Translations under genes and position numbers: made by a program | Shown here: piece by piece, positions 19,364-54,342 of the stretch | Layout: every line of letters starts with the position of its first letter | Position numbering within the stretch: the stretch's first letter is position 1 | Assembly (NCBI GenBank): GCA_951406725.2 | Contig: OX597829.1 | Span: forward strand, 50,468,001 to 50,532,000 | Source of the DNA: Octopus vulgaris | Taxonomy: Eukaryota | Direction of reading: 5' to 3' | DNA: 64,000 nucleotides | Notes under the pieces: model-generated | Told to the model about the DNA's origin: nothing | The model's input: only the letters and a program-made list of their open reading frames with translations | Databases searched by the model: none

Positions 19364-21187
19364 AATGCTTGCTATGTTATTAAAGACAGAACGAACACAC
19401 ACACAAACAAAATTTAATGAATTTTCATTTACATTATCTGCATGCACCGAATGGGTTTACTGCTGAGTGCTGCAAGAAAGGAATGAGAATTGGTGTTGCG
19501 AATTCTAAGACATTGGTCCTTCTACAAAAAGTTTTCCCAGGGAAGTGTGTATGTCAGTGGAACATCACTGATACAAGTGGAGAAGTTTATGTGACATGGT
19601 GTTGCATTCATGGCGGCGAACTAGCAGAAACGTTAGCACGCCGGGCGAAATGCTTAGCGGTATTTCGTCTGTTGTTACATTCTGAGTTCAAATTCCGCCG
19701 AGGTCGACTTTGCCTTTCATCCTTTCGGGGTCGATAAATAAAGTACCAGTTTCACACTGGGGTCGATGTAATCGACTTAATCCCTTTGTCTGTCCTTGTT
19801 TGTCCCCTCTATGTTTAGCCCCTTGTGGGCAGTAAAGAAATATATGGTGCCGCATTCACAAATGAGGAGAAGGCAGGAGGCTGAATTGGATGCTGGAATT
19901 GCAGGTGATGACACTGGAATAGGCCAGATACTATAATCAATATTCAGAAGAGGAGAAATTGGTGAAAAAAAAAAAATCCAAATTTGATACCCTCAATTTG
20001 GTTTCTATGCTTATCTTCATCTATGGTCATGAATGATGGGTAATCGATCCCGAAAGGATGAAAGACAAAGTTGATTTTGGCAGAATTTGAACTCAGAATG
20101 AAATACCGGCAGACGAAATACCAATAAGCATTTCTCCCGGCATTCTAACGTTTCTGCCAGCTTGCCACCTTAAATATTGAGTCATAAAAGGTAAGAGATA
20201 GACCTCTAAAACTTGAAAGAAAGAAGGCGAGTGAGAGTAATAATTAGCAGCTATCCATTCTCTCAATCAACTCCTAGGTCTCCTGCTCGTTAAAAAAAAT
20301 CCATCTTGTAACTCTTTTTTGTGACATTCTAATCACACATGTCCGTAATACTGGAGCTGTGACCTCTCACTGCAGAGCAGTAATGGGTCAAACTGGAGAA
20401 ATTCCTTGACCTCCAAGCTATATATCATGTAGAGAAACATAACTCTGGAGATCCTTTGGAAGAATGCTGTCTCAGCTACTTATATTTGTGATCATATTCT
20501 TTCAGTCATTACCCATCATTCATGACCCTAGATGAGGATAAACATGGAAACCAAATTGAGGGTATCAAATTTGGATTTTTTTTTCACCAATTCCTCCTCT
20601 TCTGAATATTGATTATAGTATCTGGCCTATTCCAGTGTCATCACCTGCAAATTCCAGCATCTGATTCGGCCTCCTGCCTTCCCCTCATTTGTGAATGCAA
20701 CACCATATATTTCTTTACTGCCCACAAGGGGCTAAACACAGAGAGGACAAACAAGGACAGACAAAGAGATTAAGTCGATTACATCGATCCCAGTGTGAAA
20801 CTGGTACTTTATTTATCGACCCCGAAAGGATGAAAGGCATAGTCGACCTTGGCGGAATTTGAACTCAGAACGTAACGACAGACGAAATACCACTAAGCAT
20901 TTCGCCCGGCGCGCTAACGTTTCTGCCAGCTCGCCGCCATGAATGCAACACCATGTCACATAAACTTCTCCACTTGTATCAGTGATGTTCCACTGACATA
21001 CACACTTCCCTGGGGAAAACTTTTTTTAGAAGGACCAATGTCTTAGAATTCGCAACACTAATTCTCATTCCTTTCTTGCAGCACTCAGCAGTAAACCCAT
21101 TCGGTGCATGCAGATAATGAATGAAAATTCATTAGATTTTGTTTGTGTGTGTTCGTTCATTCTGTCTTTAATAACATAGCAAGCATT
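19364..21187. repeat. Long inverted repeat IR1: arms 19364-20044 and 20508-21187
   Basis: About 680-bp arms that are reverse complements, roughly 90-95% identical by eye, each carrying the same SINE insertion. Confidence 0.95.
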
Positions 21188-21312
21188 CTTGTTAAAAACG
21201 AAGGGATTTTCTGGCGTCCATGTTTATAATAATTATAAATATTCTTTACATTTTGTTTGGTCTAATTCATGGTAAAAATGAAATTCTCATCTTGTGTGAA
21301 TTTCCGCTGCAG

Positions 21313-21453
21313 GCAAATGAAATAAAACGCCAACATGGAGCTGTTACCATTCTTGTGAACAATGCTGGATTATTGGCCCCGGGGAATTTTCTGGAAGTTG
21401 AAGACGAGAAAATTGAGCAGGTTTTCAAAGTTAACATATTGGCTCATTTTAGG
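21313..21453 (+). CDS. DHRS3: DHRS3-like SDR exon (phase 0/0)
   Basis: Acceptor tttccgctgcag, donor GTAAGT; 141 nt = ANEIKRQHGAVTILVNNAGLLAPGNFLEVEDEKIEQVFKVNILAHFR with SDR NNAG motif and helix-4 Asn. Confidence 0.95.
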
Positions 21454-22447
21454 GTAAGTTTTGTTTTTATACTTTGACTATTTTCTATCAGTGGACAGTG
21501 ACCTTGCTAGGTACCATCCTATAGTGACATAGCTAGAGTACCATTCTGACATATTTTATTTTACTTTTATTAGTCTAAAAGACAATTTCTTTTGAATAGA
21601 AGAACAAGGTTGCTATCAAATTATTTAATACAACTGCATGTTGCTGATGTCATAAGAATCATGAGGTAGTGAGTCCAGTTCCCAGACGAGGCTGCATGTT
21701 GTGTTCTTGAGCAAGACACTTTATTTCACATTGCTCCAGTCCACTCAGCTGTAGAAATGAGTTGCAACATTATTGGTGCAAAGCTGTATCGGCCCCTTTG
21801 CCTTTCCTTTGGATAACATCAGTGGCATGGAAAGGAGAGGCTGATTTACGTGCGTGCAACTGCTGGTCTTCCATGAAAAACCTTGCCCAGACTTGTGCCT
21901 CAGAGGGGAACTTTCTAGGTGCAATTTCTTTCTTCTCACAGTACATTATTCAGTCTTGGTCAAAATATGAATTTCAAGTCAAGTTGGTTTATCTGAAGTG
22001 GCTGGAAACTTTTTCACAGCCATTTTTGTGGTCATTTTGCATCGTCCCTTCTCATTCAGAACCCCTTCTACAAAATATAATGATTCGGTATAGAAATGAC
22101 TCCAACAGGGCCAATGTTTCATCAGCAAAAAAACACAATGCGAAACATCCATTTATAAGTCAGCAATTAGTAGAAATTTATAATAGTTTCAAGTGGCCGA
22201 AGACTTTTGCATGGAACTGTATTTGCATTCAATAAAAAAGTAAATTGATCTCCCATCAGCATCAATGTCATATGTTCCAATTGTTCAATCAGAAAAAAAA
22301 CTTCTTACTCGTTGAATTAGCATGGAGTATTCCACAGACATGGGTACTCTTAAGGTAATCCATGAGTGGAATATTTGGGACATCACTGTCATCATCATCA
22401 TCATCGTTGATGATGTCCGCTTTCCATGCTAGCATGGTTGGACGATT

Positions 22448-22725
22448 TGTGGTGTGTGCGAGAGATTCGAAATAAAGGCACCTACCTTCTCTTCACTCAG
22501 ATGGAGACCCTTCAGCGGTAATGGATCCTTCAACACAGCCCGACCCGAATGCTAGAGATAGCAGCTGCTTCACCCAACCTTAACAACGTGATCACCCGTC
22601 TTAACCCCTCGACGACCTGACTCGAAAAAGGCAGAATGCCCCGCTCACTGCGCACGCATCACGGCTTCCCCTTCCGGTCAGCCCCAAGTTCCGGTCAGCT
22701 CCCCAGCTGCTGACGTCATCCCACA
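22448..22725. mobile_element. Solo LTR (278 bp) inserted in a family C SINE
   Basis: TGTGG...CCACA termini, 5-bp target duplication CGATT (22443-22447, 22726-22730), GC-rich, splits the SINE consensus cleanly. Confidence 0.85.
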
Positions 22726-25129: not shown

Positions 25130-25490
25130 TATGTCATCCCTCTGGCCGCCTCAGTGCTGTTTTCGCACATTTTCTCCACTCATAATGGTCCTCAGCTCCT
25201 GTACCCCTTCCATACCAGTATCCTCCAGCAAGTTGTCGATATAGGTCGTCTTCTACCTTCCTCTCTTGGTTCTTCCTTCCGTTGGTTGCCAGAGCACCAG
25301 CTTGTTAGAGATTTCATCAGTGTGTCTGATGCAGTGTCCAGATAACGTCATCCTTCTATGCTGTTCCTTCAATCTTACTTTTGGTAGTCCCTGGTATAAG
25401 CCGGCATTTGTTGTATGAATCTTCCAGGAGACACTGAGTGCCATTCTAAGCATCCTCGTGTAACAACCGTCCAAACAGCTTCCTCAATTC
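25130..25490 (-). mobile_element. RTE-clade LINE 3' remnant
   Basis: DGCYTRMLRMALSVSWKIHTTNAGLYQGLPKV...SGHCIRH...LVLWQP. Confidence 0.8.
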
Positions 25491-26214: not shown

Positions 26215-26252
<38 letters not shown>

Positions 26253-26253
<1 letters not shown>

Positions 26254-29088: not shown

Positions 29089-30101
29089 TGTGTGTGTGTT
29101 TGTGTGTCTGTGTTTGTTCCCCTAGCATTGCTTGACAACCGATGCTGGTGTGATTATGTCCCCGTTACTTAGCAGTTCAGCAAAAGAGACCGATAGAATA
29201 AGTACTGGGCTTACAAAAGAGTAAGTCCCGGGGTCGAGTTGCTCGACTAAAGGCGGTGCTCCAGCATGGCCACAGTCAAATGACTGAAACAAGTTAAAGA
29301 AAGATAGAGAGATAATGCGAAGCAACAATATTTATGGCTGATGTTAAACATGAAAAATCAAATAGAATGAAATAAATAACTAAAAACAAACACAAAGATA
29401 ACAAAACTGACCTTTAAATTTCCCAAGTGTTTTCGCCTGAGTAGTAAACAAACAATTTTTCAGTTTTCTCAAGATTTAAATAAAACTTTTTATAATCCAA
29501 TGAGTATGAATCCACTTAAGATGACATCCAGACATGTTTCCAGGAAAAATCTTGCTTGTGTGATGCACTTGGTATCTAAATAATAGCGTGTAGCTTAAAC
29601 TAAGTTTTTTTTTTTTTTGTGTGTGTGTTGGCTGCTGTTGAGAGCTTGGGTGTTCCCGGGGCCCCGAACTGCCAGTTTCCTCCACAAAACCAGGATAACT
29701 ATAACCTGTCTGAGAAATGTGCCCCCGCAAGGTGGAGCGGCTGTCGCAGAGAGCGTTGCTGGTCATTCTCCATGGCAACGTTTTTGCAATCATGTCCACA
29801 GAGCGCAACTGAATACACCATTTTTACTCCTCCCCACTCCATATTCTGCTGATTAATTCCCCCTAACCGACCCCACCCTGCTTTTTTCTTTTTGTCTTTT
29901 TCTTGGTTGCCTTTGTGTGCTCGTTATAGGTTTTCTTTTTCTCGATAATTTAATCTGTTTTGCCTTTAATGTTTTCTTCGTTCTTTTCTTCCTGTAAAAA
30001 TATGTCGTTAATAAAATGTAATTAAAAAGGAAACGAAGTTATTACACAAGCCATCACCATACTACAGGGAAGTATCATCGTGGTCACAGTTCAATAGTTA
30101 C

Positions 30102-30103
<2 letters not shown>

Positions 30104-30132
<29 letters not shown>

Positions 30133-30737
30133 GTTTAACGGCCGTCCTCCATGCTAGCATGGGTTGGACGGTTCGACCGGGGATCTGGGAAGCCAGAAGG
30201 TTGCACCAGGCTCCAGTCTTATCTGGCAATGTTTCTACAGCTGGATGCCCTTCTTAACGCCAACCACTCCGTGAGTGTAGTGGGTGCTTTTTACGTGCCA
30301 CCCGCACAGGTGCCAGGCGAGGCTGGCAACGGCCACGGTCGGATTGGTGCATTTTAAGTGCCACCAGCACAGAAGCCAGTCGAAGCGGCACTGGCATCGG
30401 CCACAATTTGGATGGTGCTTTTTATGTGCCACCGGCACGGAAGCCAGTCGAGGCGGCGCTGGCATCGGCCAAGATTCGGATAGTGCTTTTTACGTACCAC
30501 CAGTTCAGGGGTCCTGGCATCTGCCAGGTGCCAGCCATAGGATTGATTCAATTTCGATTCCGATTTCGATTTTCACTTGCCCCAACAGGTCTTCGCAAGC
30601 AAAGGGGGGTTGGCATGGGTGCCTGTCGTCGGATGAGGTTCAATATCGACTTCGCTTGCCTCAACAGGTCTTTGTGTGTCCAAGGGAGGAAAGGCATGCA
30701 TAAGTGGGCTGGACTCACTTGTCCTGCCTGGTCTTCT
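30104..30737 (-). mobile_element. Family C retroposon with (GAT)n tail (RTE-type 3' end); other copies at 2135-2382, 5385-5641, 11295-11521, 58915-59169 (+) and 22390-23105, 32288-32586, 39008-39548 (-)
   Basis: (CAT)n-CGTTTAACG..CCATGCTAGCATGGGTTGG..GGATGCCCTTCCTAACGCCAACC with internal GGTGCTTTTTACGTGCCACC repeats. Confidence 0.85.
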
Positions 30738-30837
30738 CACGTACAGCATATTTCCAGAAGACCAGGCTGGACAAGTGAGTCCAGCCCACTTATGCATGCC
30801 TTTCCTCCCTTGGACACACAAAGACCTGTTGAGGCAA
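30656..30837. repeat. Near-perfect hairpin: 82-bp stem (1 mismatch), 18-nt loop
   Basis: 30656-30737 is the reverse complement of 30756-30837 except for one T:T mismatch. Confidence 0.97.
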
Positions 30838-30981
30838 TCTAATTATTATTTCATAGACATGACTGTGTGGTAAGAATCTTGCTTCCCAACCATGTCAACT
30901 TGGGTGAGTATCTTCCACTATAGTACCAAGCTGATCAAAGCCTTGTGAGTAGATTTATTAGACAGAAACTGAAAGAAGCCC

Positions 30982-33242: not shown

Positions 33243-33247
<5 letters not shown>

Positions 33248-33653
33248 GTAAAGTATAGAAGCCATCTTATCATGGCTAACCACATTGGGGAGGGGTGTTA
33301 CTGTAGCTTTATAGCCCCAAGAGATCTTCGTCTCTAGCTGGCTTTAGACACAATATCTGTGTCCTTGGAGTATTTGCAAAGGGAGGCCATCCCATCCTCG
33401 CAAGCCTGAGTGATACGCTCGAACTAGTTTCGGGATTGTTGTCCCTCGTCAACGGGCGGTAACCACCAGGTAGCGATGAAAGAGAAGGCTCCTTTGCAAA
33501 TAGATATAAGTTTTTCTAATGGCGTCTGCCACTGGGGCTATAAAGCTACAGTAACACCCCCTCCCCAATGTGGTTAGCCATGATAAGATGGCTTCTATAC
33601 TTTACATTATCGAGCGATTACTGTTTCAATCTCATTCTGAGATTTAATAACGC
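33243..33653. mobile_element. Fold-back element with ~76-bp near-perfect inverted repeats, inserted in (TA)n
   Basis: 33243-33319 is the reverse complement of 33533-33610 (one G indel); inner IR TATTTGCAAAGG / CCTTTGCAAATA; (TA)n on both flanks. Confidence 0.9.
33416..33458 (-). ncRNA. Minimal type I hammerhead ribozyme-like motif (C3U variant)
   Basis: CGCCCG-TTGACGA-GGGA/CAACAA/TCCC-GAAA-CTAG-TT-CGAGCG: stem I 5 of 6 pairs, perfect stem II, palindromic ACTAGT stem III, GUU cleavage triplet. Confidence 0.7.
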
Positions 33654-35149
33654 TATATATATATATAGGTGCAATTATAAATATAAATACCATATTGTAT
33701 TATATCATAACATGATTACTATAGAGAAAAGTTACAAACCCCTTCACAATCTATAGAAATTACACCAGTATATATATGAGGGTATATAGATATCCAAAAT
33801 ACAATTATATAATATAAGATAAAAGAATAGATAAAATAAAATAAAATAAAAATGAATAAAAGGAAAAAAATATTTGTATAAAATTTCAATAAAGTATTTA
33901 TAGAATGTAAAAATAGAAATAACGATAAAAATTTTACATTTTGAATGCCATAAAATATATACTGGATATAAAAAGAGATGAAAGATAAAAAAATAAGGAT
34001 AAGTCATGGTATTCATAATAAAAGCTAATTAAAAAATAAATAAAATACGATGAAAATACCATTGGTATTGGTTTTATAAAATATTTCCAGATATGTGTAG
34101 AATCATAGCAGTTCTTGGGGGATATATAATATACTTAAGGGAGTCATGGGCTCTGGTAATCAATTGTAAATATACCTATTACGACTGATAGGGAAGAAAG
34201 TCTTAGAACCGAAGGGGAAATTGTGTAATCTAAGCATAGAGGGAATGCAGATTAAACAGGTAGGGGTTATAAAAGGGCAGAAAGGTTAGCACGTCGGGCT
34301 AAATGCTTAGCAGTATTTCAGCTGTCGTTACGTTCCAAGTTCAAATTCCGCCGATGTCAACTTTGCCTTTCATCCTTTTGGGGTCGATAAATTAAGTACC
34401 ACTTACGCACTGGGGTCGATGTAACCAACTTAAGCCCTTTGTCTGTCCTTGTTTGTCCCCTCTATGTTTAGCCCCCTGTGGGCAATAAAGAAATAAATAT
34501 TATGTATAATTCTATACAATAGAGGGTATGTTAGGAAAAACATGGCACCCCAGATAATTTCCTATTTCTTTACTGCCCACAAGAGGAGACTAACAAGGAT
34601 AGACAAATGGATTAAGTCAATTATATCGACCCCAGTGCGTAACTGTTACTTATTTAATTGACCTTGAAAGGATGAAAGGCAAAGTCGACCTCAGCGGAAT
34701 TTGAACTCAGAATGTAGTGGCAGACGAAATACCTATTTCTTTACTACCCACAAGGGGCTACACACAGAGGGGACTAACAAGGACAGACAAATGGATTCAG
34801 TTGATTATATCAACTCCAGTGCGTAACTGGTACTTATTTAATCGACCCTGAAAGGATGAAAGGCAAAGTTGACCTCGGCAGAATTTGAACTCAGAACGTA
34901 GTGGCAGATGAAATACAGCTTAGCATTTCGCCCGGCATGCTAACGTTTCTGCCAACTCACCGCCTTATAATTTCTGCCACTAAATCATTGTATGATATGT
35001 ATAATATTATTTGTTTCTAAAATATTTGAAGGTAACTTCGAGCCATGAAGACAATATCAGACTGACTTGGTGCCTCAACTTAAGTACCTAATTCAACTGA
35101 ATCATAATTCTTTATATATATATAACTTAGATTGGTCCAGGCTATGTCT

Positions 35150-35705: not shown

Positions 35706-36076
35706 GCCATGATATATATAATATATATATATATGACAGGCTACTTTCCGTTTTCATCTACCAAATCCACTCACAAGGCTTTGGTCAACCCACGGCTACA
35801 GTAGACGACACTTGCTTGAAGTGCCATGCAGTGGAACTGAACCCTGAACAATGTGGTTGGGAAGCAAACTTCTTACCAGACACACACATATGTATACATA
35901 CATATGTGTGTTTGTATATATTTGTGTGTCTGTACTTGTGCTTGTCCCCTACCATCACTTGACAACCAGTGTTGGCTTGTTAGTGTCCCCCATAACCTAG
36001 CAGTTCTCCAAGAGGGACTGATGGAATAAGTACTGGACTGGAAGATAAATATTGGTATCGATCGTTTTGACTAAAC

Positions 36077-36573
36077 CAGTGGTTCTCATCTGGGGTCCAT
36101 ATGACCCTTGAGGGTCCATTTAAGATTTTTTGGGAGTCCATGCAACAAAATAGTGTATTAGGGATCCACAATAGTATTTTAAGGGACCCCTGAAAAGCTT
36201 TTGCTTTAGATGTATGTATTGGTATGTAGTGAAAAACAAAATAGGGGTTTTGGAAGAAGTTTCTATAAAACTAATTTTTAAACATCAAATGGCTATGGAG
36301 TCCACCAGAATAAAATAATAATCAAGGGGTCCATACATAAAAAGGGGTTTGAGAACCCCTGCTTTAGATGTATGTATTGGTAAGAAACAGATTGGTTTCT
36401 TTCTCTGTTTTCCATAGTTCAACCTATACAAGTTTATGTATGAAAAACAAAATATCAATTTTGGAAGAAGTTTCTATAAAACTAGTTTTTAAACATCAAA
36501 TAGCTATGGAGGTCCACTAGAATAAAATAGTAATCAAAGGGGTCCATAGATCAAAACTGTTTGAGAACCTCTC
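36077..36573. mobile_element. hAT (Charlie/MER5-like) MITE with duplicated 3' half, inserted in a family B SINE
   Basis: CAGTGGTTCTCA...TGAGAACCCCTG termini; two 3' ends (36361, 36573); degenerate 8-bp duplication gactaaac/agctaaac. Confidence 0.7.
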
Positions 36574-37414
36574 AGCTAAACCCTTTCTGGGCAGTGCTCC
36601 AGCATGGCCACACTCCAATGACTGAAACAAGTAAAAGGTAAAACGATGAAAGATAAAAGCCAATGAGGTGTTACAATGCAAAAATCGGTCACAAAACAAA
36701 TTTCTTATTCTTGAGGCCAAATTTAAATTTAAAATATGATCAAGTGCACATTTTCCTGACGAGGGACCAGGAGATGATGCAATTTGCTAAACTTGACGAG
36801 CTTTGTCAAACTAAGTAAAAATCTCTATCTTACACACACACACACTCACACACAGACTTGTCCTTTTAGGTAACTGTGCCACTTGAAAAGCACCTGTGCC
36901 TGTGCTGCGTGAATACACCTGAGCTAGGTGGCACGTGGAAAGTACCTGGCATACTCTGTTAAGTGGTTGGTGCTAGGAAAGGCATCCAGCCATAGAAACC
37001 ATGCCACAATAGACTGTTGGAGTTTGGACACCTCCCTGTTAGCCTGCTCCATATCAAACCTATTTCTTTACTACCCACAAGGGGCCAAACACAGAAGGGA
37101 CAAACAAGGACAGACAAACGGATTAAGTCGATTACATCGACCCCAGTGCATAACTGGTACTTAATTTATCGACCTCGAAAAGATGAAAGGCAAAGTCGAC
37201 CTCGGCGGAATTTGAACTCGGAACGTAATGACAGACGAAATACCGGTAAGCATTTCGCCCGACGTGCTAACGATTCTGCTAGCTCGCCACCTTATCAACC
37301 ATCCAACCCATGCCAGCATGGAAAGTGGACATTAAATGATGACGACGAAGGGGGAGGGGGATTATTTTTTGTTTTCTTTTAATTCTTATTTTAAAAAATT
37401 TTTCTGATTTATAG

Positions 37415-37659
37415 ACCGTGAAAACGTTTTTACCTGAGATGCAGCAGTTAGAACATGGCCACATTGTGACGATTGGATCTTGTCTTGGAATCTCAGGAAT
37501 GGATGGTGTTTCATCCTATAGCAGTTCCAAGTTTGGCGTGACTTCTTTTGCTGATTCTCTGGCAGCCATGTTAGACAGTGCTACCTACAAAGGCGTTGAA
37601 TCCACTGCCGTTTATCCCTTCCAGATTTCAAACAGTATGTTCGCTGGCTGTGAAATTAG
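37415..37659 (+). CDS. DHRS3: DHRS3-like SDR catalytic exon (phase 0/2)
   Basis: Acceptor tttctgatttatag, donor GTTTGT; 245 nt = TVKTFLPEMQQLEHGHIVTIGSCLG...YSSSKF...VYPFQISNSMFAGCEI(R); catalytic Ser and YxxxK. Confidence 0.95.
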
Positions 37660-37773
37660 GTTTGTTTTTTTTTATTATGTTTTATTGCATTTTCTTCATT
37701 TCTTTCCTTCCTGTGTGTGTGTGCATGTGTCTGCATATGTGTGTGTGTTTGTGTATGTAATTGTGCATATATA

Positions 37774-38153
37774 CACTACCGTCAGAAATTAATTAGCACC
37801 CTTGATTTACTCTTCACTCAAGGTATGTACTGTCACCTAGTGGCCATATCTCGAACTATTGCTTTGTTGCGAGTTCACTGTTGCGCAGAACGATGACGTA
37901 ACTTTGTTTGCAGAGCAGTTTGAGAGTCTGCAGCCTTATGATGTTGACATAGCAGTGCAACAACAACTTGGAGTGCGGATGCAGACAAATCTTCCTTTGT
38001 TTAATAGATATAGGTAGCGCCTCGCAAGGACCGAAATCACACCGTACTAAGTTTTCTCATCGCGTAAGACGTTTTGAACAGCTCATAGGTTAATTGATTT
38101 AACCTATTTAATGTAGAAATTTGAGAAGTGCTAATTAATTTCTGACGCAAGTG
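37774..38153. mobile_element. Tc1/mariner-type MITE, copy 2
   Basis: Same TIRs and TA flanks as 9457-9833, few substitutions. Confidence 0.9.
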
Positions 38154-38185
38154 TATGTATGGGAAGATGATTTATATATGTGTTT

Positions 38186-38847: not shown

Positions 38848-39693
38848 TGTATGTATTTATGTATCTGAGTGTGGGTATCTATGTGTCTGTGTGTGCATTT
38901 GCATGTAGGGATGTTGTTATGTATGTGTCCATGTATATGTATCTATCTCTATGGATGGATGGATGGACGGATGGATGGATGGCTGGATGGCTGTAAGGTA
39001 TGTATATATCATCATCACCATCATCATCATCGTTTAACATCCGTTCTCCATGCTAGCATGGGTTGGACGGTTCGACCGGGGATCTGGGAAGCCAGAAGGC
39101 TGCACCAGGCTCCAGTCTTATCTGGCAGTGTTTCTACAGCTGGATGCCCTTCCTAACGCCAACCACTCCGTGAGTGTAGTGGGTGCTTTTTACGTGCCAC
39201 CTGCACAGGTGCCAGGCGAGGCTGGCAACGGCCACGGTCGGATTGGTGTATTTTATGTGCCACCGGCACGGAAGCCAGACGAGGCGGTGCTGGCATCGGC
39301 CACGAGTCGGATGGTGCTTTTTACGTACCACCAGACCAGGGATCCTGGCTGGTTCAATTCGATTTCGATTTCGCTTGCCCCAACATGTCTTCGTAAGCAA
39401 GGGGGTTGGCATGGGTGCCTGTTGTACGGTCAGATTGGTGTATTTTACGTGCCACCGGCACGGAAGCCAGTGGAGGCGGCGCTGGCATCAGCCACAAGTC
39501 GGATAGTGCTTTTTACGTACCACCAGACCAGGGAACCTGGCTGGTTCAATAAGTTTGCGTAGTTTTATCTTTTGAATTGCTCATCAGCAAAGAAAGGAAT
39601 GTATGTTTTGGGACATACATACAGAGAAAGTTGTTTATTATATTCATTGGGTAATGCTTAGACATAGTTATCAACATCAAAATTATTTGAAAC

Positions 39694-41073: not shown

Positions 41074-42707
41074 TATATTGAGAGAGGAGGAGGCAGTCAG
41101 AATCTTGGATAATTCTTTATTAGTGCTTTCGTTTGTTTTTCAAACTCGTCAAGACAAAATCAAAATCAAAATGGTACAAACAGAATGTTTCATTGTTCTG
41201 TTAAGAAGAACAGAATATTGTTTTTGTTTTTTGTTTGTTTTTTTAGAAAAAGGGGAAGAGAGAGAGAAAGAGAAAAGCAAAGGGATGGGGGATAAGGAGC
41301 GAGAGAGCTGTCAGAACAATCAAGAATGAGGAGAAAACATAATAATAAAGGAGGGGAAAAGATAGATAGATAGATAGATAGATAGAAAGACAGACATGCA
41401 GACAGAGGTTTCTTTTCAATTTCATGTCAATTCATTGAAATTTCATTACAAAGCATTTTTCTTTCTCCTTTCTTTGTTTTTTTCTTTCCATTGTATACCT
41501 ATAAGCATATTTGTAAATAAGCACATTTTCTCACAAGGGCTGGTGACCTTTCAATGATGTCAATTTTAGGAAGTACAATGGAAGAAATAAGAAAAGGGGG
41601 GAAGGTGTGGACATCACTGTAAAACGAAAAAGACTTTAAAGTTCAAAGTCCTATGAAAATGTATATTCCTTTACATTTGTATAGCCAAGTTCCATATTCT
41701 GTGTAATTCCATGTTTTTCATGAACAAACATTAAATATTAATACAATATTCATAAATTAATAAAATAAAATCAGAATATGAAAAAATAATTTGGTACTGT
41801 TTATAATTCAATTTACTCTCAATGTACATTTAATCAAACATCACACTTGGGTTTTGTATGTATTTTGTATATTTAGCTGGAAGCCCCTCTGTAGGATATA
41901 AATTGCATAATAAAACAGGGCCCACTTAAGTATATTTCTTTGAGTATGTTTCATTCTTTTGCAGAATTTATTTTAATTTTTATTGCCTGCTTAGATAAGA
42001 TAATTCAAAAGAGATCTTTTTCACAAATTACTTTGCCAAATAGCTACATTAAATATCTTTCCTAATCAGTGGTAAAATGCTTCTAGTATTCTTTCTCTTA
42101 AGAAAGAATACCTGAGAAATTGAATAATAAACAATACCAAATTATTTTATTAAATTCCGACTTTAAATTCCTATTTTATGAATATTTAATGTTTGTTCAT
42201 GCAATTACACAGAATATGGGACTTGGCCATACAGTGTAAAAGAATATACATTCTCATAGGACTTTGAACTTTGAACTATTTTTTTATTTTTCAGCTATGA
42301 CTGCACCCTCACCCCCTTTTCTTATTTCTTCCATCCTACTTCCTAAAATTGACATCTTTGTGAGGTCACCAGTCCTTGTGAGAAATTGTATTTATTTATA
42401 AATATGTTGATAGGTATACAATGGAAAGAAAAAAGAAAGGAGAAATAAAAAAAGAAAAATGCTTTGTAATGAAATTTCAATGAATTCACCACTTCAGATT
42501 GAAAAGAAACCTCCCATACTCTCTCTCTCATTCTCTCTCACTCTCTCTCTCCCTTTCCAAAAAAAAAACAAAAACAATATTCCCCTCTTCTAAACAGAAC
42601 AATGAAACGTTCTGTTTTTACCATTTTGATTTTGTCTTGAGGAGTTTGAAAAATGAATGAAAGTGCTTATAAATAATTATCCAAAATTCTGACTGCCTCC
42701 TTTTTCT

Positions 42708-42714
<7 letters not shown>
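41074..42714. repeat. Long diverged inverted repeat IR2: arms ~41074-41814 and ~42117-42714
   Basis: Colinear reverse-complement blocks throughout (e.g. AAAGTTCAAAGTCCTATGA / TCATAGGACTTTGAACTTT), roughly 75-85% identity by eye. Confidence 0.9.
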
Positions 42715-42779
<65 letters not shown>

Positions 42780-44759
42780 GTATGCATGCATATATTGCTA
42801 ATATATGTATTTTTATTTTTTATAATGTTCCACAGCTGAATGGAAACAGGTAGGGTAATTCACACACAAGCTTTGCAGGTTCGAGTTTCACCTCATGTAC
42901 TTTTTGTCTTGCTGCTACCATATCCACCACTACTATCACCCCCACAAACACCACCACCACTACCACCAATACAATTACTACTGTCACTGCTATCACTGAT
43001 ACTAATGTTTTGCCTATAGTTGCTATACGGATGATTGTATCATCGTCATTGTTGTCATCATAATTTAACTTCCACTTGTCTGTGTTTGCATGAGTTGGAC
43101 AGAATTTGTTGAGGAAAACACTTGATAGACAGATGTCCTTCCTATCACTAACCATCACCTCACAGTTCCCACTACTAAGAGGAAGTATTTGGGAAGGGAA
43201 AGTGGAGGTGGATGGCTGTATGTCAGGTGTTGAAAGGCTAAAAGTAAGACAGAGGGACATGCACAGGTGTCTCGCTATTGAAGAGATACATGGATGAATG
43301 GGATAAGGGGAAGTTAGTGATGGGGTGCTAGAGCAAACTCACAAGGAACAAGAAGGTGGGCATAAAAGAAGAGATGGACAGTTTCCAAGTAAGGTAATAT
43401 TTCCCCCATGACCAGACATGTTTTCAGGGAAGATTGGAAACAAAGGACCCTGCTTGTGTAAGAGTGACACTTGCTTGCAACTTTCATGTGAAGTCAAAGC
43501 AAGGAGACAGAAACACACACACTCACACACACACACAACGCACACACAACACACACACACACACATCTACATATCTATATTATATCCTGTGTATATAATT
43601 AGATGTACAACTGCTTCTGTTGAGTTTAGAGCTCTCTGTAGATTATCACCACCCAGACTGCTTCTGGTGTAGTGGTTTGGTTAATATTATACTTAGTAGT
43701 GTTACTGGCTATGATATACAGAACAAATTCTGTTCAAGCATCCAATGACACACGGAACATCCAGTTCTGAGCTCCAAGCAATCATAACGGTGAAACTAAT
43801 AATTTAAACTAATAATTTAAACTTGTGTTTATCGTAATTACTCATATATCATCATCATCATCATCAGCATCATCATCATAATCATTAGCATCATCATCAT
43901 AATCATCATCATTTAACGTCCATTGTCTATACTGGTATAGGTTGGATGGTTTGACCTGGGCTGGCAATTGAAGGGAATACAGTTTAATTGTTTACTCTAA
44001 ATGATTCTTAATGTTTCCTATCATTCAGTGTGGTTAGCCAAGTCTAGATTTTATCAGGGTGCTCATAAGGTATCTGCCCAGATTGAATCCCTATATATGT
44101 GTGGTGTATTTGATGGGCCTTCTTTCAGTTTCTGTCTATCAAATCCACTCACAAGATTTGATCAGCCTAAGGATATAGTAGAAGGCACTTATTCAAGGTG
44201 CCATGCAGTGGGACTGAACTTGGAACCGTGAGGTTGGAAAGCAAACTTCATACCACACAGCTACCCTTCTGCCTATATGTGATTATATGTGTATATACAT
44301 ATCGCCATCATTAATCAGTGTCAGAATCCTTGTCACCACTTTTACCCTAGCTTTTCCATGCTTGTATGGATTGGACAAGTCCTCACGGACAAAACCAGTC
44401 CCTGTTCAGACTTACTGCTCTCCTACTCAGGTCAGGGATAAAGGTAAAGAATGGGTGGTGGTGAGAGGTGGACTCTAATTACAGACGTATCCAGTGTGAT
44501 ATCATGCTTCGCTACACAGCTGGTGGCATGGTCATGGGAAGGAGGTAGGGCAATATAGAAATGATAAGGGGGGGGGGGGAGGCAATAGACAAGAGGGAGC
44601 AACAAAATGTGGAGTATGAGTATAGGGAAACTTAATATAAACAAGGATCAGAAGATGAATATTGACAAACATTATGATCACCAGCACCATCTGCATGTCT
44701 TCTTTTAATGCTTACCATGTGTTGCGGAGGGGTTTTTTCTAGCGTGGTGCTTCATCACA

Positions 44760-45520: not shown

Positions 45521-45949
45521 ACTCTGAGCATATATATACATATGTATGTAACATAATGCAATAAAGTATCTCCTTGATCTGTTGTGGTTAAGCATCCAGT
45601 TGCACTTGATAAATTCAGTGCAGAATTCCCAAACAGCCACAGTAGTGAAACATACATAAGGAACATAAGATATAATTGCAATTTCTCCTACATTTGCTCT
45701 TTATATCATAGCTAGTGATACTATTAAGTATAGTAGTTATCTAAGTACTATACTGAAAGCAGATTGGATAATTAGAATCTCTATGAGGCTCTAAAACCAG
45801 CTGCAGCAGTTGCTCCCATCTACTCCCTAGTGGTTTCTACTCCACCTCCTGAACCACTTCCATTCCTGCCCATACGATTTTAACAAGTCACCCCCCCCCC
45901 CCCCCCGCTTTCCATGCCTTCAGTAGAGGCACGCCCTAAAAATGGCTTC

Positions 45950-46518
45950 TGGTTACAAATATCTTGGGTCATACATATTATCTGAAAAAGATCTTCTAAC
46001 TAGAAAGGGTATGGCCTGGTCAGCCTGTAATGATATGCATAAGATCTGGTCATCAAATCTAAGTAGAGATTTCAAACTTGAAATCTTCAAAGCCACAGTC
46101 GAACCAATTCTACTATATGGCTCAGAAACCTGGACGTTATCAAAGAAGCTTGAGAGGCGGTTGGATGGAACTTACACTCGCCTCCTTATGAGAGCTCAAA
46201 ATCTCTCGTGGAAGCGCCATCCAACCAAAATGCAAATATATGGGAAACTACCACCTGTGTCATCTCTTGTGAAAGGGAAGAGAGTCCAGTTTGCTGGACA
46301 TTGTTGTAGAGCTGAAAAAGAAGTAATTTCTACTCTTCTCCTCTGGAAGCCATCTACTCGCAATACCAGAGGGCGCACACTCTCCTACACTGATGTAATC
46401 TCCAGGGATACAGGCATCCAGCAACATGACCTCCATAATGCTATGATGGACCGTGAAGTCTGGCGTAACATAGTATATTCCATTGTCTCGACCACAGTCG
46501 AACAATGATGATGATGAT
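45950..46518 (+). mobile_element. 5'-truncated RTE-clade LINE with uninterrupted C-terminal frame and (GAT)n tail
   Basis: ORF 45942-46508: YKYLGS...ATVEPILLYGSETWTL...LDGTYTRLLM...FAGHC...MMDREVWR. Confidence 0.9.
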
Positions 46519-47693
46519 GTGGTTAGGGATGTTGGACTCCTGATTGTAAGATTGTGGTTTTGATTCCTGGACCAGGCGACACGTGTTCTTGAACAAGACA
46601 CTGCATTTTCACATTGCTCCAGTTCACTCAGCTGGCAAAAAGGATTAACCCTGCAACAGACCAGTGTCCTGCTCAGGTGTGAAATTTAAATGCAATGGAA
46701 ACCCGGAAACCAGGAAACTGGTCCTTAGGAGTCGGCATGACTGATAGAGGTAACTTTATTTTTGTGGAGGCACATAGCTTAGTGGTTGGGGTGTTGGACT
46801 CATGATTGTAAGGTTGTGGTTTCAATTCCAGGACTGAGCAATGTTTGTTCTTGAGCAAAACACTTCATTTCACATTGCTCCAGTCCACTCAGCTGTCTCC
46901 TACCTCCACCTGTTTCCTCCCTCCTCATACTCTTATGAAAGCATCCTCTCTCTCTCATCCCCCCTCTCCTCCCATGACTCACTGCCTGTGCCTTCTTTCA
47001 TGCTCACCTTCTTGTTCCTTGAGAGTTTGCTCTAGCACCCCATCACTATCTTCCCCTTATTTCATTCATCCATGTATCTCTTCAATAGCAAGACACTCGT
47101 GCTTGTTCCTCTGTCATACTTTAGCCTCTCAATGCCTGGCATGTGGCCAACCACCTCCACCTTCCCCTCCCAAATACTTCCTCTTAGTAGTGGGAGCTTT
47201 TCCTCTTTCATTTTTCACTGTTCTTACAAGTTACACAGCAACCTCACTTGTGCTGGTGCCAAGGGGAAAAAAGCACCCAGTGCACTCTGTAAAGTAGTTG
47301 GTGTTAGGAAGGACGTCCAGCTGTAGAAACCATGCCAAAGATGATGTTGGAGCTTGATGTAACTCTTGCAGCTTCCCAGTTTCCTGTCAAACCATCCAAC
47401 CCATACCAGCATTGAAAACAGACATTAAATGATGGTGATGATGATGGGTAAGAAGTAGATAACTACAAAACAAGTATATTTATTTAAAGATTGTTCAAAT
47501 GTTCATATCTTTTATTTGATATCGCTGACCAGTTATCGTTGTTTTAAAGACACTGCCCAAAGTAACGGCAATAATTGGATTCTGTTCTCACACACACATA
47601 AACAGAGCAGACATAGAATATAGTATGTATATACACACATATATACACATATGTGATCAAGCAGACTCCAATGAAGCTGTTGCTCTGCACAGG

Positions 47694-48478: not shown

Positions 48479-49190
48479 GTGTAGTCTAAAAATGGGCACC
48501 AGCCAAATGGTGATGCAGTCCATCTCCCTCTCTCCTTCCAAATGTCATGGTTTTTGATACCTCACTGGGTCAAGGGGCTGTGTTTACGCAATATTACAGA
48601 AGAACCTAAAGCAATTTAGCACAATTAACTAAATCAAGAAGCTTAATTTCATTGCTTCAGAATGTATTTTCCCAAAAAACTTAAAACAGGATAAATTTTT
48701 TTTATTTGTTTCAGGTTTCCTCGTTTGTTTCCTCCTGTGGATGAAAAGTATGTTGCTGTAAAGACAGTAGAAGCAGTTCTTACCAATACCAAATCCCTCA
48801 TGATTCCACGCCTTATCGGTTATGTAATCATATTAAAGACGTGAGTGACTTAATGATTGTTGAATCTTTCTAAACGGTCAACCCATTGGGTTTTCTGATC
48901 TTAAACATGGAACTTTGGAGATGAGATGATTAGGTGCTGCTATTTGGATGCAGAGGATTTGGCATGGCTGGATATTGAATTGGTTTTGGTGAGAGTATAC
49001 TTTGGCACTGGAGACACACACACTTGCACACACATACACACATGCTTATGCACAGAGAAGTACAGATAGAAAGAATGAGAGAGAGAGAGAGAGAGTGACG
49101 TTGCGATTTATTAAGTGAAAACTTCTCTTCTACACATAGAGAGAAATATGCATCACCATTTGGCTGGTGCCCATTTTCAGACTACACACT

Positions 49191-49195
<5 letters not shown>
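48472..49195. repeat. Short inverted repeat IR4 bracketing exon 48715-48840
   Basis: GTGTAGTCTAAAAATGGGCACCAGCCAAATGGTGATGCA (48479-48517) pairs with TGCATCACCATTTGGCTGGTGCCCATTTTCAGACTACAC (49149-49187), one mismatch. Confidence 0.92.
48715..48840 (+). CDS. DHRS3: DHRS3-like SDR exon (phase 2/2)
   Basis: Acceptor tttatttgtttcag, donor GTGAGT; 126 nt = (R)FPRLFPPVDEKYVAVKTVEAVLTNTKSLMIPRLIGYVIILK(T), resembling DHRS3 RFPNLFPPL...TVEAV; not in the ORF track. Confidence 0.93.
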
Positions 49196-49223
<28 letters not shown>

Positions 49224-49863
49224 ACAGAAAGAGGAAGACTCTCATTAGTTGAACCTGAGTGACATAAACACTTCTCCTTCTCATCAGACACACAAGGGAA
49301 ATATACTCACATACATAAACAGAGCGAAAGAGAGATGAGAGACAGATGTGAGAGAAATATTACATTTTATTAATTGGTTGCAATTGACGTAAATACTTTT
49401 CCGTCTCCTCAGACACATAAAGATAGATATGTTCACAGGGAGGAGAGAGAAAGAGATGTTCACAGGGATGGGTAACATGCTTCTAGGCGCTATGCCTAGC
49501 TTGTTAAAGAGTCTATCAACTCGCCACCTTAGTTGTAGTAGTAGTAGTAATAGAAGTAGTAGTGGGGGCGCAGTTGTGGAGGTGGCAGCAGCAGCAGCAG
49601 CAGCCATAGTAGCAGTAGTAGTAGTAGTAGTAAAAATCATAATTCTTTCTACTGAAGGCACAAGGCTTCAAATTTTGGGAGAAGACATTTGGTCAATTGC
49701 ATCAACCCCAGTATTTCACTGGTACTTATTTTATCTATTGTGAAAGGATGAAAGGCAAAGTGGACCTCAGTGGAATTTGAACTCAGGACATAAAGACAGA
49801 TGAAATGCTGCTAAGCATTTTGGTACGGCGTGCTAATGATTCAACCAGTTTGACGCCTTAATG

Positions 49864-49913
<50 letters not shown>

Positions 49914-51062
49914 CCTTTCTACAAAAGACACAAGGCCTAAAATTTTGGAGACAAGGACCAGTTGGTCAGTTGAAGCTTAGACAGTGTCACATGACAGTTA
50001 GCTGGTGCTGGCTGCTGGAGCCTACTGGTGAGTATTTAAAGGGAAATTTGGCATGATAGTCATTCACCTGCTGACATTCATTGACACTGCATCAAAGAAA
50101 CCAAAGAACAAAAGAAAAAAGGAGAAAGAAAAAAACACACTCAACACCAGAAGTGAAGATACCTCTGAAAGGCGGGGAGGCATCACGTCGAAAACAATAG
50201 AGGAGTAGGGGCTGAAACTGGACTTGGTTCCTCCTGATGATGTCTTTAGCCACTGGATCCTATAAAGGAGCTGTTGAGGTAGCAAACCATGAAACGTGGT
50301 TGGAATTCCTTGACCCCAGTGTTCAACTGGTATTTATTTCATTGACCCCCCAAAAGGGTGACAGGCTAAGTCAACCTCAGTGGAATTTGATCTCAGAACG
50401 TAAAGATGGACAAAATGCCCCTAAGCATTTTATCTGGTGTGCTAACAACTCTACCAGTTTGATGCCTTAATGATAATAATACTAACAAGAGCACTCAGAG
50501 AGTGTAATCCCCCACCAAAGCAACACCAATGTCCTCTCAACGATTAGCTAGAGATGATTTTTAAATGAGAATACCTGAAATAAACTTGACTGCTCTCACA
50601 AACGATAATACTAAAAGTGAACCTGACCACTCTCAAAAATTAAGTAAAAAAGTAGGAAAAAAATCCAGAATCCTTGTCCGGTACTGTATTGATCCCAAAA
50701 TCTAATCACTTAATGCCAGTCACGAGGCCAAACATCCCTGAAAGTTTCATCTGAATCCATCCAGCGGTTCTTGAGATATCTTCTCCACGCACAGACAAAA
50801 CAATACCTCCGCCTCCGCTAAGGTTGAGGTAATAATGGTTTCAAATTTTGCCACAAAGGCAGCAGTTTTGGGGGAGAGGATGAATTGATTACATTGACCC
50901 CCCCCCACCTCATACACACACACCAGTGTTCAAATGGTACTTTTTTTATCGACCCAGAAATGATGAAAGGCAAAGTTGACCTCGGTGGAATTTGAACTCA
51001 GAACATAAATACGGTTGAAATACCACTAAGCAGAGTACTAATGACTTTATCAGCTCGCCACC

Positions 51063-51109
<47 letters not shown>

Positions 51110-52118
51110 CTTTCAACTGGAAGCACAAGGCCTCAAATTTGGGGGAAGGGATTAAGTCAATTACATCGACCCCAGTATGTATAACTGATACCAATTTTAT
51201 TGACTCTGAAATGATGGAAGGCAAAGTCAACCCCAGCAGAATTTGGAAATACTGCAAAGCATTTCATCCAGTGTGCTAATGATTCTGCCAGCTGTTGCCT
51301 TAATAATAATAATAATAATAATATTAATAATAATAATAATACTGATGTAGTACCAGACAGTGGCTCTCATGGCTTCTGATCTTAACTGATTGGAAGTGTT
51401 ATCATGTACGTTGTTTTGTCTTGGTATAAAAGATGACCTACAGCAAATATTCTGCTCAATACCACAGATTTGCTTGTCAGTTGTTTGACCATAACCAGTT
51501 GAGCATGTCCCTTAGTGGCTGACGATACGTGCATCTCTGATCACGAGCAGAAGTAGTGGGGGAGCATCATAGCCATGTGTTGAGAGGGATTCTTTGGGGT
51601 TTGAATAATTCACCTCTGGAAACATGGTGTCCAACATTCTTAAACAACCCTCGTTCAGGGACCTTTTGAGCGGGATGGGCTACTCAACCTGAAGAAATTT
51701 CTAACTGGGCCCCACCTGCAAGGTCATGTGCTGTTTATCTTGATATGTCACGCACATATGGTTGTGATGCATGTGCCTGGTGTACCCTTATCAGACGGGT
51801 AGTCATGATGGGTATACTGGGCTTCGTATATTTTACCCCAGTGTCACTTTGATAGCATGAACTGCTCTCTCACTCAATAATAATAATAATAATAATAACA
51901 ATAATGGTTCCAAATTTTGCCACAAGGGTAGCAGTTTTGGGGAAGGGGACAAGTCAATTACATCGACCCCAGTATTCAACTGGTACTTATTTTTATCGAC
52001 CCCAAAAGGAAGAAAGACGAAGTCAACCTCACTGGAATTTCAACTCAGAACACAGCAACAGGCGAAAGATGCTAAGCATTTCATCCAGCATGGTAAGGAT
52101 TCTGCCAGCTCATCACCC

Positions 52119-52154
<36 letters not shown>

Positions 52155-52158
52155 GTGT

Positions 52159-52203
52159 GGTGGAAGAAGAGGAGGATGACAACAGCAATAATGATGACAC
52201 TGT

Positions 52204-52265
<62 letters not shown>

Positions 52266-52416
52266 AACTAAGATGAAAATGATAATGAAAACAAAGGCAA
52301 TAATCATGACAATAATGATTATGAGGATTATGATGAAGCAGGTGATGACGACGATGATGGTGGTGGTGGTGGTGGTGGAGGTGGTCATGATGTTGGTGAT
52401 GATGAAAATGATGATC

Positions 52417-52455
<39 letters not shown>

Positions 52456-53083
52456 GCAGCAACAATGGTGATGATGATGATGATGGTGATGATAATGATA
52501 ACCTTGACTACAACTTGAAGAACAATGATGATAGTGACGATAAAATTGACGACGATGACGATGATGACAACGACAACGACAATGTCAGTAATTATGTAAT
52601 CGCCAATCTAAGAACAGTTCTGCAACTGGCAGCGAATGGCCAACCTTAATCATTGACTATTTTCGCACTGTCAGCTGCACCGTTGCATGTGACGATGCAC
52701 TTGAACTGTTTGATTTCCTGTTGCTCTGCCGGACGGACATTCCACCGTGCAACCCCACACACCCCACCTACCACACCCCACCCCACCACTTCACCTGCAC
52801 AAATTAATTGACAAATCTGCATTGTATTTCTTGTAAATATTCTGCAAAGAGTCGGACGGACACATAACTAATATATGCATACTCGTGTGCATATCAAGTT
52901 GCACATGTGCAGACACGTATATACAACATATGCACACACACACACACACACACACATCACCGTACACTGACATACACACATATTCACATGCATACACATA
53001 CACACCATGTTCATATTTGTTTATTACACAGACACATGCATGTATGCATATAGTGTATACAATTATATTATACACATGCACAA

Positions 53084-53131
<48 letters not shown>

Positions 53132-53214
53132 AACACATATATACATGCTGAAAGACACATCCACATACACGTATGCATATCATGTATACAATTATATTAT
53201 ACACATGCACAAGT

Positions 53215-53285
<71 letters not shown>

Positions 53286-54263
53286 GCACAAACACATATA
53301 TACATGCTGAAAGACACATCCACATACATGTATGCATAGACACGCACACAACGCATATACATGTTTGTACGCATGCACATAAAGCTATGCACACGCAAAA
53401 TCAAACTCATACATATTATTAGATAAACATCTGAAGCAGACACATAAATTCATTTGGAAGCATTTTTACATACACACGCGGTTCAACATTGAATGTCAAT
53501 ATATAGGCGCAGGAGTGGCTGTGTGGTAAGTAGCTTGCTAGCCAACCACATGGTTCCGGGTTCAGTCCCACTGCGTGGCATCTTGGGCAAGTGTCTTCTG
53601 CTATAGCCCCGGGCCGACCAATGCCTTGTGAGTGGATTTGGTAGACGGAAACTGAAAGAAGCCTGTCGTATATATGTATATATATTTATATGTATGTATG
53701 TGTATATGTATGTGTTTGTGTGTCTGTGTTTGTACCCCTAGCATTGCTTGACAACCGATGCTGGTGTGTTTACGTCCCCGTCACTTAGCAGTTCGGCAAA
53801 AGAGACCGATAGAATAAGTACTGGGCTTACAAAGAATAAGTCCCGGGGTCGATTTGCTCGACTAAAGGCGGCGCTCCAGCATGGCCGCAGTCAAATGACT
53901 GAAACATGTAAAAGAGTAAAAAAGAGAAAGAGTAAAGAGTATATAGTATGAACGTGTGTGTGTGTATATATATATATATATATGTTTGTATTGTATTCAT
54001 GTGTATGTTTATAGTCGAGGTTATCATTATAATCATCATCATCATCATCACCATTGTTGCTGTTGTCATCATCATCCTCCACCTCATCATCATTTTCATC
54101 ATCACCAACATCATGACCACCTCCACCACCACCTACCACCACCACCACCATCGTCGTCATCACCTGAATCATCATCATCCTCATAATCATTATCGTCATG
54201 ATTATTGCCTTTGTTTTCATCATCATAATAATGTTCATCATTGTCATCATGTTCGTCTTAGTT

Positions 54264-54298
<35 letters not shown>

Positions 54299-54342
54299 AC
54301 AGTGTCATCATTATTGTTGTTGCCATCCCCCTCTTCTTCCAC
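52159..54342. repeat. Inverted duplication IR5 of a degenerate (GAT)n block: 52159-52513 and 54009-54342
   Basis: Unique interruptions are shared in mirror order (GGTGGAAGAAGAGG, GACACTGTATG, ATAACTAAGA, AAAACAAAGGCAATAATCATGAC, GATAACCT). Confidence 0.9.

Follow-up and report, generated by a model that had tools for sequence, protein, structure and literature searches.

Here, we analyze inverted sequence pairs in a 64,000-nt stretch of the Octopus vulgaris genome (assembly GCA_951406725.2, contig OX597829.1, positions 50,468,001 to 50,532,000 of the forward strand; hereafter the window, numbered from its first letter). The window comprises the 3' part of one plus-strand gene, five exons of which splice, with AG/GT ends, to residues 76-319 of P0001. 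P0001 is a 319-aa protein with an adh_short domain, is labeled at its source as short-chain dehydrogenase/reductase (SDR) 3 of Octopus sinensis and shows 100% identity to one exon. Aligning the five spliced exons to these residues set the exons of the SDR host gene at 6709..6831 (residues 76-116), 21313..21453 (141 nt), 37415..37659 (245 nt), 48715..48840 (126 nt) and 62769..62868 (the last coding exon), all on the plus strand; the fourth exon has phase 2-2, and its skipping preserves the reading frame. Tandem or multicopy repeats occupy 26,267 bases, or ~41% of the window. Six inverted pairs, P1 to P6, and a hairpin are all intronic, lying between exons of this single gene, and their origin and their possible consequences for RNA are our subject.

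Self-comparison of the tandem-masked window, followed by pairwise alignment with identities given ungapped, recovered all six inverted pairs listed in a preliminary description of this stretch, each at, or no more than ~20 bp from, the coordinates claimed: P1 (19364-20044/20508-21187; 96% identity, 463-bp spacer), P2 (41074-41818/42114-42714; 87.5%, 295 bp), P3 (43164-43382/46981-47198; 87%, 3598 bp), P4 (47694-48084/48126-48478; 78%, 41 bp), P5 (48473-48517/49149-49195; 98%, 631 bp) and P6 (52156-52513/54009-54346; 90%, 1495 bp). The 82-bp hairpin described at 30.7 kb is also present, with arms 30656-30737 and 30756-30837 that are identical at 81/82 positions (99%) and separated by an 18-bp loop, as are adjacent opposite copies of a short interspersed nuclear element (SINE) at 34276..34968 (34276-34498 and 34561-34968), which are ordinary family copies. 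Two weak, old pairs were absent from that description: one (43600..43728, plus, and 45692..45822, minus; 74% identity) is nested within the P3 spacer, and the other lies at 5721..5979 (arms 5721-5790 and 5911-5979; 77%). Within the window, the arms of P1 to P6 occur twice only. Mismatches between arms are mostly transitions (24/27 in P1, 22/28 in P3 and 43/74 in P2). The statement that the paired sequence is not one of the common SINEs holds only in part: P1 contains a SINE in both arms, P6 is mostly low-complexity, and the hairpin is a retroposon end. By contrast, the proposal of a recurrent process, based on differing divergence, agrees with the spread of 74-99% identity among the pairs.

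In P1, donor and acceptor can be told apart. The acceptor (19364..20044, minus) is a new inverted copy of 681 bp that carries a SINE at 19612-19842, and the donor (20508..21187, plus) is ancestral intron DNA with a SINE at 20708-20938; both arms share this one 231-bp SINE with an identical target-site duplication. The acceptor splits a minus-strand SINE piece (19345-19363 and 20045-20173), excision of 19364-20044 restores a continuous SINE, and the empty joint is bridged in alignments by 19 window copies of the SINE. At the target, the sequence is TTTAAT|CGATCC; AAT opens the insert and TAAT closes it, both of which are also found at the donor ends, and TAAT lies on both sides of the insert. 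At the inner joint, TAAT/ATTA at 20041-20044 and 20508-20511 provides a primer microhomology. The acceptor junctions are without a poly(A) or (GAT)n tail. The host of the insertion (19200..20173) consists of two opposite SINE pieces joined at CCAGT (19344), i.e., before insertion this site was a palindrome joined at the SINE-internal CCAGT/ACTGG inverted repeat, and the insertion point lies ~20 bp from its center, as expected for a hairpin-prone break site.

Contigs from other sequencing data bear on P1, the pair for which they were compared (4 of 24 listed runs, region 18850-21650). In run X1, the left joint at 19364 is crossed by a 138-bp contig that has single-copy depth and 0 differences, and a further contig spans the joint between spacer and donor; an X1 arm contig has ~2x single-copy depth, yet the arms contain SINE and low-copy repeat parts. 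A contig of run X8, from another study and with another organism label, also spans the left joint. Relative to single-copy sequence, contig depth reaches ~20-35x in parts of the P1 arms and ~60-110x in the P1 spacer; the spacer (20260-20541) is thus a repeat family, with no second copy in the window. Run X14, which is 6-10% diverged, contains an unbroken 572-bp contig that leads from the spacer through the arm, lacks the inner SINE and has single-copy depth (42.5 vs 41.5 and 37.4). This more distant octopus has the P1 donor arm only, and it polarizes P1 indirectly. Because both arms in the window carry the inner SINE while the X14 donor lacks it, the SINE and the duplication are younger than the split from X14, and the 4% divergence between the P1 arms is in line with this age. 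Thus, a SINE entered the exon-near intron DNA, and an inverted copy of that DNA was then placed 463 bp upstream.

P3 has a similar anatomy. Its acceptor is a 219-bp inverted copy (43164..43382, minus) that splits an interspersed repeat (43040..43480) at 43163/43383, and excision of the copy restores this repeat, three copies of which cross the empty joint (3869-4023, 10490-10607 and 60003-60092). The probable donor (46981..47198, plus) lies 3.6 kb downstream; the joints show ~3 nt of filler on the left and ~2 nt of microhomology on the right, and there is no tail. We also considered P3 as two independent copies of a dispersed family and rejected this idea, since the acceptor splits its host repeat.

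The remaining pairs are mostly bordered by simple sequence. In P2, the left arm (41074..41818) is on the plus strand and the right arm (42114..42714) on the minus strand; the outer end of the latter enters an (AT)n array (42710-42783), and the pair contains large indels in microsatellites. P4 (47694..48478) is an old near-palindrome. The plus-strand left arm of P5 (48473..48517) lies inside (TG)n sequence, 198 nt before the 126-nt exon, and its minus-strand right arm (49149..49195) runs into (CA)n 309 nt downstream, such that the arms enclose this exon. In P6, the left arm (52156..52513, plus), which is the probable donor, lies within a longer cryptic (ATG)n tract, the right arm (54009..54346, minus) is the probable acceptor, and >80% of the pair is masked as (ATG)n-like low-complexity sequence. 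Altogether, three of P2, P4, P5 and P6 end in microsatellites. Six of nine local inverted copies lie around the fourth exon (41.0-54.3 kb), and the clustering of six of nine within 11.4 kb is marginal (P 0.038). Three pairs of this 41.0-54.3 kb cluster have their outer end in a microsatellite, and this may be a fragile region. P4 and P5 as a single compound event was rejected because their identities differ (78% vs 98%).

The hairpin (30656..30837) forms the truncated end of a minus-strand element at 30101..30839, which we take to be a retroposon. Its tail is a (GAT)n run at 30103-30132, and retroposon and hairpin together are bracketed by CAATC (30101-30105 and 30835-30839), a candidate target duplication of 5 bp. 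The left arm of the hairpin continues the retroposon, and its units recur at 39032-39550. By analogy with such elements elsewhere, the hairpin is likely a snap-back copy at the retroposon end.

The orientation of local copies is skewed. Among local (<6 kb), low-copy, non-tandem pairs, which were sorted by hand, nine are inverted and one is direct (49260/49385; binomial P 0.011); without the hairpin, the ratio is 8:1 (P 0.020). Distant low-copy pairs comprise two inverted and five direct ones. Sorting removed two Penelope-like rows, one miniature inverted-repeat transposable element (MITE), one old SINE pair, one 28-bp SINE tail and one 36-bp self-palindrome among the inverted matches, and two rows we take to be Helitron-like, three tandem or near-tandem rows and two rows of a multicopy family among the direct ones. 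Fold-back of a resected 3' end onto its own strand necessarily produces inverted copies; the 9:1 excess favors such a fold-back, which is the likely route to the local inverted copies.

These findings support a model, to which we assign a probability of about 0.7, whereby P1 and P3 are nearby intron DNA that was copied backward into older repeats, likely as scars of germline double-strand-break repair, whereby the other pairs likely arose alike and whereby the hairpin likely reflects a retroposon insertion. For P1, a break would open at TTTAAT within the SINE; the resected right end would fold back on its own strand, its 3' ATTA pairing with TAAT at 20508 and leaving a 463-nt loop; this end would copy 680 nt outward and then be released; finally, AAT would serve to rejoin the released end to the left end, and the resulting inverted copy would be flanked by TAAT on either side. 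The same scheme, with a 3.6-kb loop, accommodates P3, and the same chemistry likely acted at a retroposon cDNA end in the 30.7-kb hairpin. Such events would recur over time. With both arms in one transcription unit, the copies would pair in pre-mRNA and may undergo editing by ADAR, but they are most likely tolerated by-products that decay neutrally. Concerning the mutational origins named in the preliminary description, recurrent local inverted copying is borne out, and templated repair or template switching fits P1 and P3, as indicated by the split hosts, the short junction homology and, in P1, the outgroup polarity. Penelope-type inversion, by contrast, does not account for the listed pairs, none of which has a hammerhead core, and explains only two unlisted pairs (13.1-13.8 kb and 33.2-33.6 kb).

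Several observations weigh against this model. P1 and P3 are explained just as well by invasion of the sister or the homologue; the pairs behind the 9:1 ratio were hand-sorted, and the window had been selected for its inverted pairs; and a microhomology of 2-4 nt is, taken singly, nothing unusual. Only two of six pairs (P1 and P3) have an established donor and acceptor, with P2, P4, P5 and P6 unpolarized; no split host was found in the window for P2, P4, P5 or the right arm of the hairpin, and the matches across the P6 joint are low-complexity. The P3 joints are blurred by 13% divergence, and the empty P1 acceptor joint was not seen in X14 among the matches listed. Some of the remaining pairs may be mobile-element structures, their copies having been counted in the window only. 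A mild proximity to exons (P 0.012-0.077) is not predicted by a neutral model. Finally, the closest described route yields short products: snap-back insertions are given as ~5-34 bp in yeast in the available text of PMC11724301, compared to 45-745 bp with loops of 18-3598 bp in octopus.

The most serious alternative is that only P1 and P3 are repair copies, while P2, P4, P5, P6 and the two weak pairs are mostly mobile-element structures, i.e., foldback or MITE terminal inverted repeats (TIRs), Penelope-like pseudo-long terminal repeats (pseudo-LTRs) or opposite copies of low-copy families. The window does hold a MITE with TIRs (37766-38161; 97% copy at 9450-9833) and hammerhead-bearing inverted pairs at 13097-13845 and 33246-33607, Penelope-like elements are described to form inverted structures, with Naiad families occurring in Octopus (PMC8557442, in the sections available), and contig depth is raised in parts of even the P1 arms. 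However, no hammerhead core was found in P1 to P6 or in the hairpin, a motif that old copies could have lost and that Naiads are without. Nothing in an Rfam scan reached gathering score, the matches to miRNA families being generic hairpins or microsatellites, and Pfam searches of eight open reading frames (ORFs) over the arms gave three weak, sub-threshold matches in one ORF and none in seven, i.e., no notable domain. Moreover, the arms of these pairs occur only twice in the window, no flanking target-site duplication was seen by eye around P2, P4, P5 or P6, and a TIR-bounded unit repeated with a target-site duplication, as seen for 37766-38161, was not seen within the window for P1 to P6. P5 encloses a conserved exon and, therefore, cannot represent the TIRs of one element. 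We consider this alternative unlikely. It is scarcely credible that the pairs are assembly artifacts, whether from mis-joins or from chimeric long reads. Assemblies are known to have difficulty with inverted structures (PMC8557442, as excerpted), and the comparison with other data covers P1 only; nevertheless, the arms differ by 1-26%, and the P1 and P3 acceptors split repeats cleanly. Because mismatches are transition-rich and contigs of two independent studies span the P1 left joint, the pairs are not artifacts, and for P1 this explanation is excluded.

Two further alternatives concern function and template. Exon-proximal copies could be preferentially retained as substrates for ADAR or splicing, with the P5 helix promoting skipping or back-splicing of the 126-nt exon. 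The preliminary description had placed three pairs within ~130-310 nt of splice sites, and the distances confirm this: the nearest splice site is 126 nt away for P1 (the 3' splice site of exon 21313..21453, from the donor arm), 243 nt for P4 and 198 and 309 nt for P5, compared to 1517 nt for P3, 3316 nt for P6 and 3415 nt for P2. Three of six pairs at no more than 320 nt from a splice site corresponds to P 0.007 under free placement, 0.015 under circular shift and 0.012 under a repeat-aware null. This threshold was, however, picked after viewing the data, and P rises to 0.077-0.083 once the adjacent P4 and P5 are treated as one cluster. Repeats are depleted near splice sites (20% vs 44%), so that unique donors sit there anyway; and in P1 the exon-near arm is the old donor, the new copy lying 1.27 kb from the exon and, therefore, not having landed beside it. 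Moreover, decay is evident in P2 and P4 from their mixed mismatches and large indels, and mismatches forming G:U and A:C are balanced (10:14 in P1, 22:21 in P2 and 21:18 in P4), giving no sign of selection for pairing. Thus, the claim that the copies lie often beside exons finds no support as a selected or functional trait. P5 would be the only functional-looking case: none of the five exons is spanned by another inverted pair at anything like so short a distance, the exon that P5 encloses can be skipped without loss of frame, and the pair is predicted to form a ~46-bp helix (1 mismatch in 45) in both minimum free energy and centroid folds (z -5.6), and inverted repeats of 30-40 nt are reported, in the part of PMC4201285 available, to suffice for circularization in human cells. 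Overall, we regard selective retention as quite improbable. Slightly less probable still is that the copies are RNA-templated, i.e., that a broken sense-strand end primed on nascent pre-mRNA and that the reverse transcriptase of a long interspersed nuclear element or polymerase theta made an antisense cDNA insert. In favor of this, a single transcription unit holds all pairs, both polarized cases have their donor on the downstream side of the acceptor, and retroposons abound in the window. Against it, neither a poly(A) nor a (GAT)n tail is found on the P1 and P3 acceptors; direct copies would be expected if the other end primed, so that an inverted bias is not required; and just two events are polarized. 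Local fold-back repair remains our preferred explanation of the inverted copies.

With respect to RNA, the arms of all seven named structures share one transcript and are predicted to be able to pair in unspliced RNA. The longest predicted helices are 93 bp in P1, 69 bp in the hairpin, 62 bp in P6, 40 bp in P3, 33 bp in P2, 29 bp in P5 and 18 bp in P4. Bases with an inverted partner at no more than 2 kb (at least 80% identity over 50 nt) number 3040 of 7914 in the named arms compared to 2265 in multicopy repeats; at any distance, the order is reversed, with 9043 bases in repeats and 3553 in named arms. A Porath-type score, here an ungapped approximation on a selected window, is 2.3% for inverted and 8.3% for direct matches, the latter mostly tandem arrays. 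Run X15, which is guessed to be RNA, gives no cover on exon 21313-21453 and a trace on unique parts of the arms, and is uninformative on expression or editing. In the excerpts consulted, Octopus bimaculoides has an exceptionally high genomic potential for near-perfect double-stranded RNA (dsRNA; 4.4e-3) together with exceptionally high hyper-editing (PMC5625713), and inverted duplicates are far less depleted in pre-mRNA than in mRNA (PMC7006430). Given this outlier status of octopus and the lesser depletion in pre-mRNA, tolerated intronic dsRNA is to be expected.

The window contains several other elements. The inverted pair at 13097-13845 (86-88%) ends in (AAT)n, contains a hammerhead core at 13741-13772 and a possible 11-bp target duplication, offset by ~20 nt, and fits a Penelope-like insertion, in which a retroposon is nested. 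The pair at 33246-33652 has 75-bp arms (98.7%) around a 213-bp spacer between (TA)n runs, with a diverged piece at 17235-17301 and a Hammerhead_HH9 match at 33400-33470 (minus; E 7e-4, below gathering score). The MITE copies at 9450-9833 and 37767-38153 are 385 bp long and 97% identical, with ~28-bp TIRs and TA flanks, and one of them starts 107 nt past an exon. A ~500-bp element at 36076-36575, presumably a hAT-like MITE, has CAGTGGTTCTCA-type inverted ends, is inserted in a SINE and contains an internal near-tandem 140-bp duplication. A 276-bp GC-rich insert (22449-22724) splits a retroposon copy; its ends carry a short duplication, and the window contains no donor for it. The 3' end of a non-LTR retrotransposon ORF, intact over 193 aa (weak DUF6451 match), lies at 45927-46515; a (GAT)n tail follows, and the segment may account for most of the words that match runs guessed to be RNA in that region. 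Two nearby direct copies at 16958-17364 and 17928-18340, with a TC start and an end formed by a hairpin and CTA(G), are presumably Helitron-like. A helix-turn-helix fragment of a Mos1-type transposase (PF17906, E 3e-8) lies at 4937-5215 on the minus strand, and satellite arrays occupy 56128-58680 (356-bp x7), 60399-61535 (44-bp x26) and 7654-8252 (13-bp x46).

If P1 and P3 are repair-mediated duplications (RDs), their density is high. Two RDs in ~14-30 kb of repeat correspond to 67-143 per Mb (95% lower bound 8-17), counted in a selected window and by a more permissive method than that of Pace et al. (2009), who report 0.08-0.65 RDs per Mb of transposable element (TE) in ten vertebrates (PMC2671141, as far as its available text goes). 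If eight or nine of the pairs are RDs, even ten times the primate rate would not yield so many by chance in 64 kb (P 1.5e-8). The window may be a local hot spot. It is possible, if doubtful, that inverted fold-back duplications of 50-750 bp arise in octopus germlines at a density 10-100 times that reported for vertebrates, that these provide a large share of intronic dsRNA and help to explain hyper-editing, and that an occasional exon-spanning copy such as P5 alters splicing. The mechanism is known; its rate and the inverted orientation in octopus are possibly unusual. In the literature searched, no paper on octopus repair duplications was found, which is weak evidence of absence given that subscription papers were mostly outside its scope; searches by SINE patterns for octopus background loci in viral, metagenome and GTDB collections gave 0, 0, 1 and 0 matches, the single one being metagenome locus L001. 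The window is a clear invertebrate case of local duplication by repair, in which an outgroup dates one event and the SINE is seen to precede the duplication. Should the whole genome show the same density and the same bias toward inversion, ADAR substrates would stem directly from a habit of DNA repair, which would offer a testable cause of the published outlier dsRNA potential of octopus; if not, the window represents a local hot spot of ordinary repair scars.

The closest counterparts of P1 and P3 are the RDs of vertebrates, for which Pace et al. propose ectopic synthesis-dependent strand annealing (PMC2671141). In the available text of that paper, RDs are inserts of at least 50 bp that interrupt a TE and have a donor within 5 kb, 2-9 nt of microhomology, optional filler or target duplication, a spread of ages and no poly(A) tail, and P1 and P3 fit this description: their acceptors lie between collinear host halves, 463 and 3598 bp from the donors, with microhomology or filler at the joints and no poly(A/T) tail. 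RDs are further defined by a single other genomic copy of the inserted sequence; within the window, the P1 and P3 inserts are each present twice. A donor distance of >50 bp and <5 kb is also found in P2, P5 and P6, while the spacing is too short in P4 (41 bp) and in the hairpin (18 bp); outgroup evidence comes from P1, indirectly through X14. P1 (681 bp) exceeds the longest RD in the same text (619 bp) and holds a SINE, which the filter used there excludes. The octopus copies are inverted, whereas the available part of that study contains no orientation analysis ("inverted" occurs 0 times, and part 1 of 15 of Table S1 has no strand column). Inverted repeats do result from snap-back synthesis-dependent microhomology-mediated end joining (SD-MMEJ) and local foldback inversions, as excerpted from PMC5728401 and PMC11724301: the 3' end pairs with a short inverted primer repeat of its own strand and is extended, after which it unwinds and rejoins by microhomology, and P1 has such a primer microhomology at its inner joint. 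The products obtained in experiments measure a few to tens of bases, with primers close by. The hairpin resembles the 5' junctions of R2 non-LTR insertions, in which the cDNA 3' end is described to prime on the cDNA itself, giving an inverted copy at the 5' end (PMC11371274, in part), while the 5-bp target duplication in octopus is weak and an empty site was not observed. The inverted pseudo-LTRs and hammerheads of Penelope-like elements (PMC8557442) fit 13097-13845 and 33246-33607; P1 to P6, by contrast, are without hammerhead, tail or coding remnant. Finally, the available sections of PMC5625713, PMC7006430 and PMC9989829 ascribe most dsRNA to neighboring inverted copies of repeat families, whereas in this octopus gene local inverted copies outweigh multicopy repeats within 2 kb.

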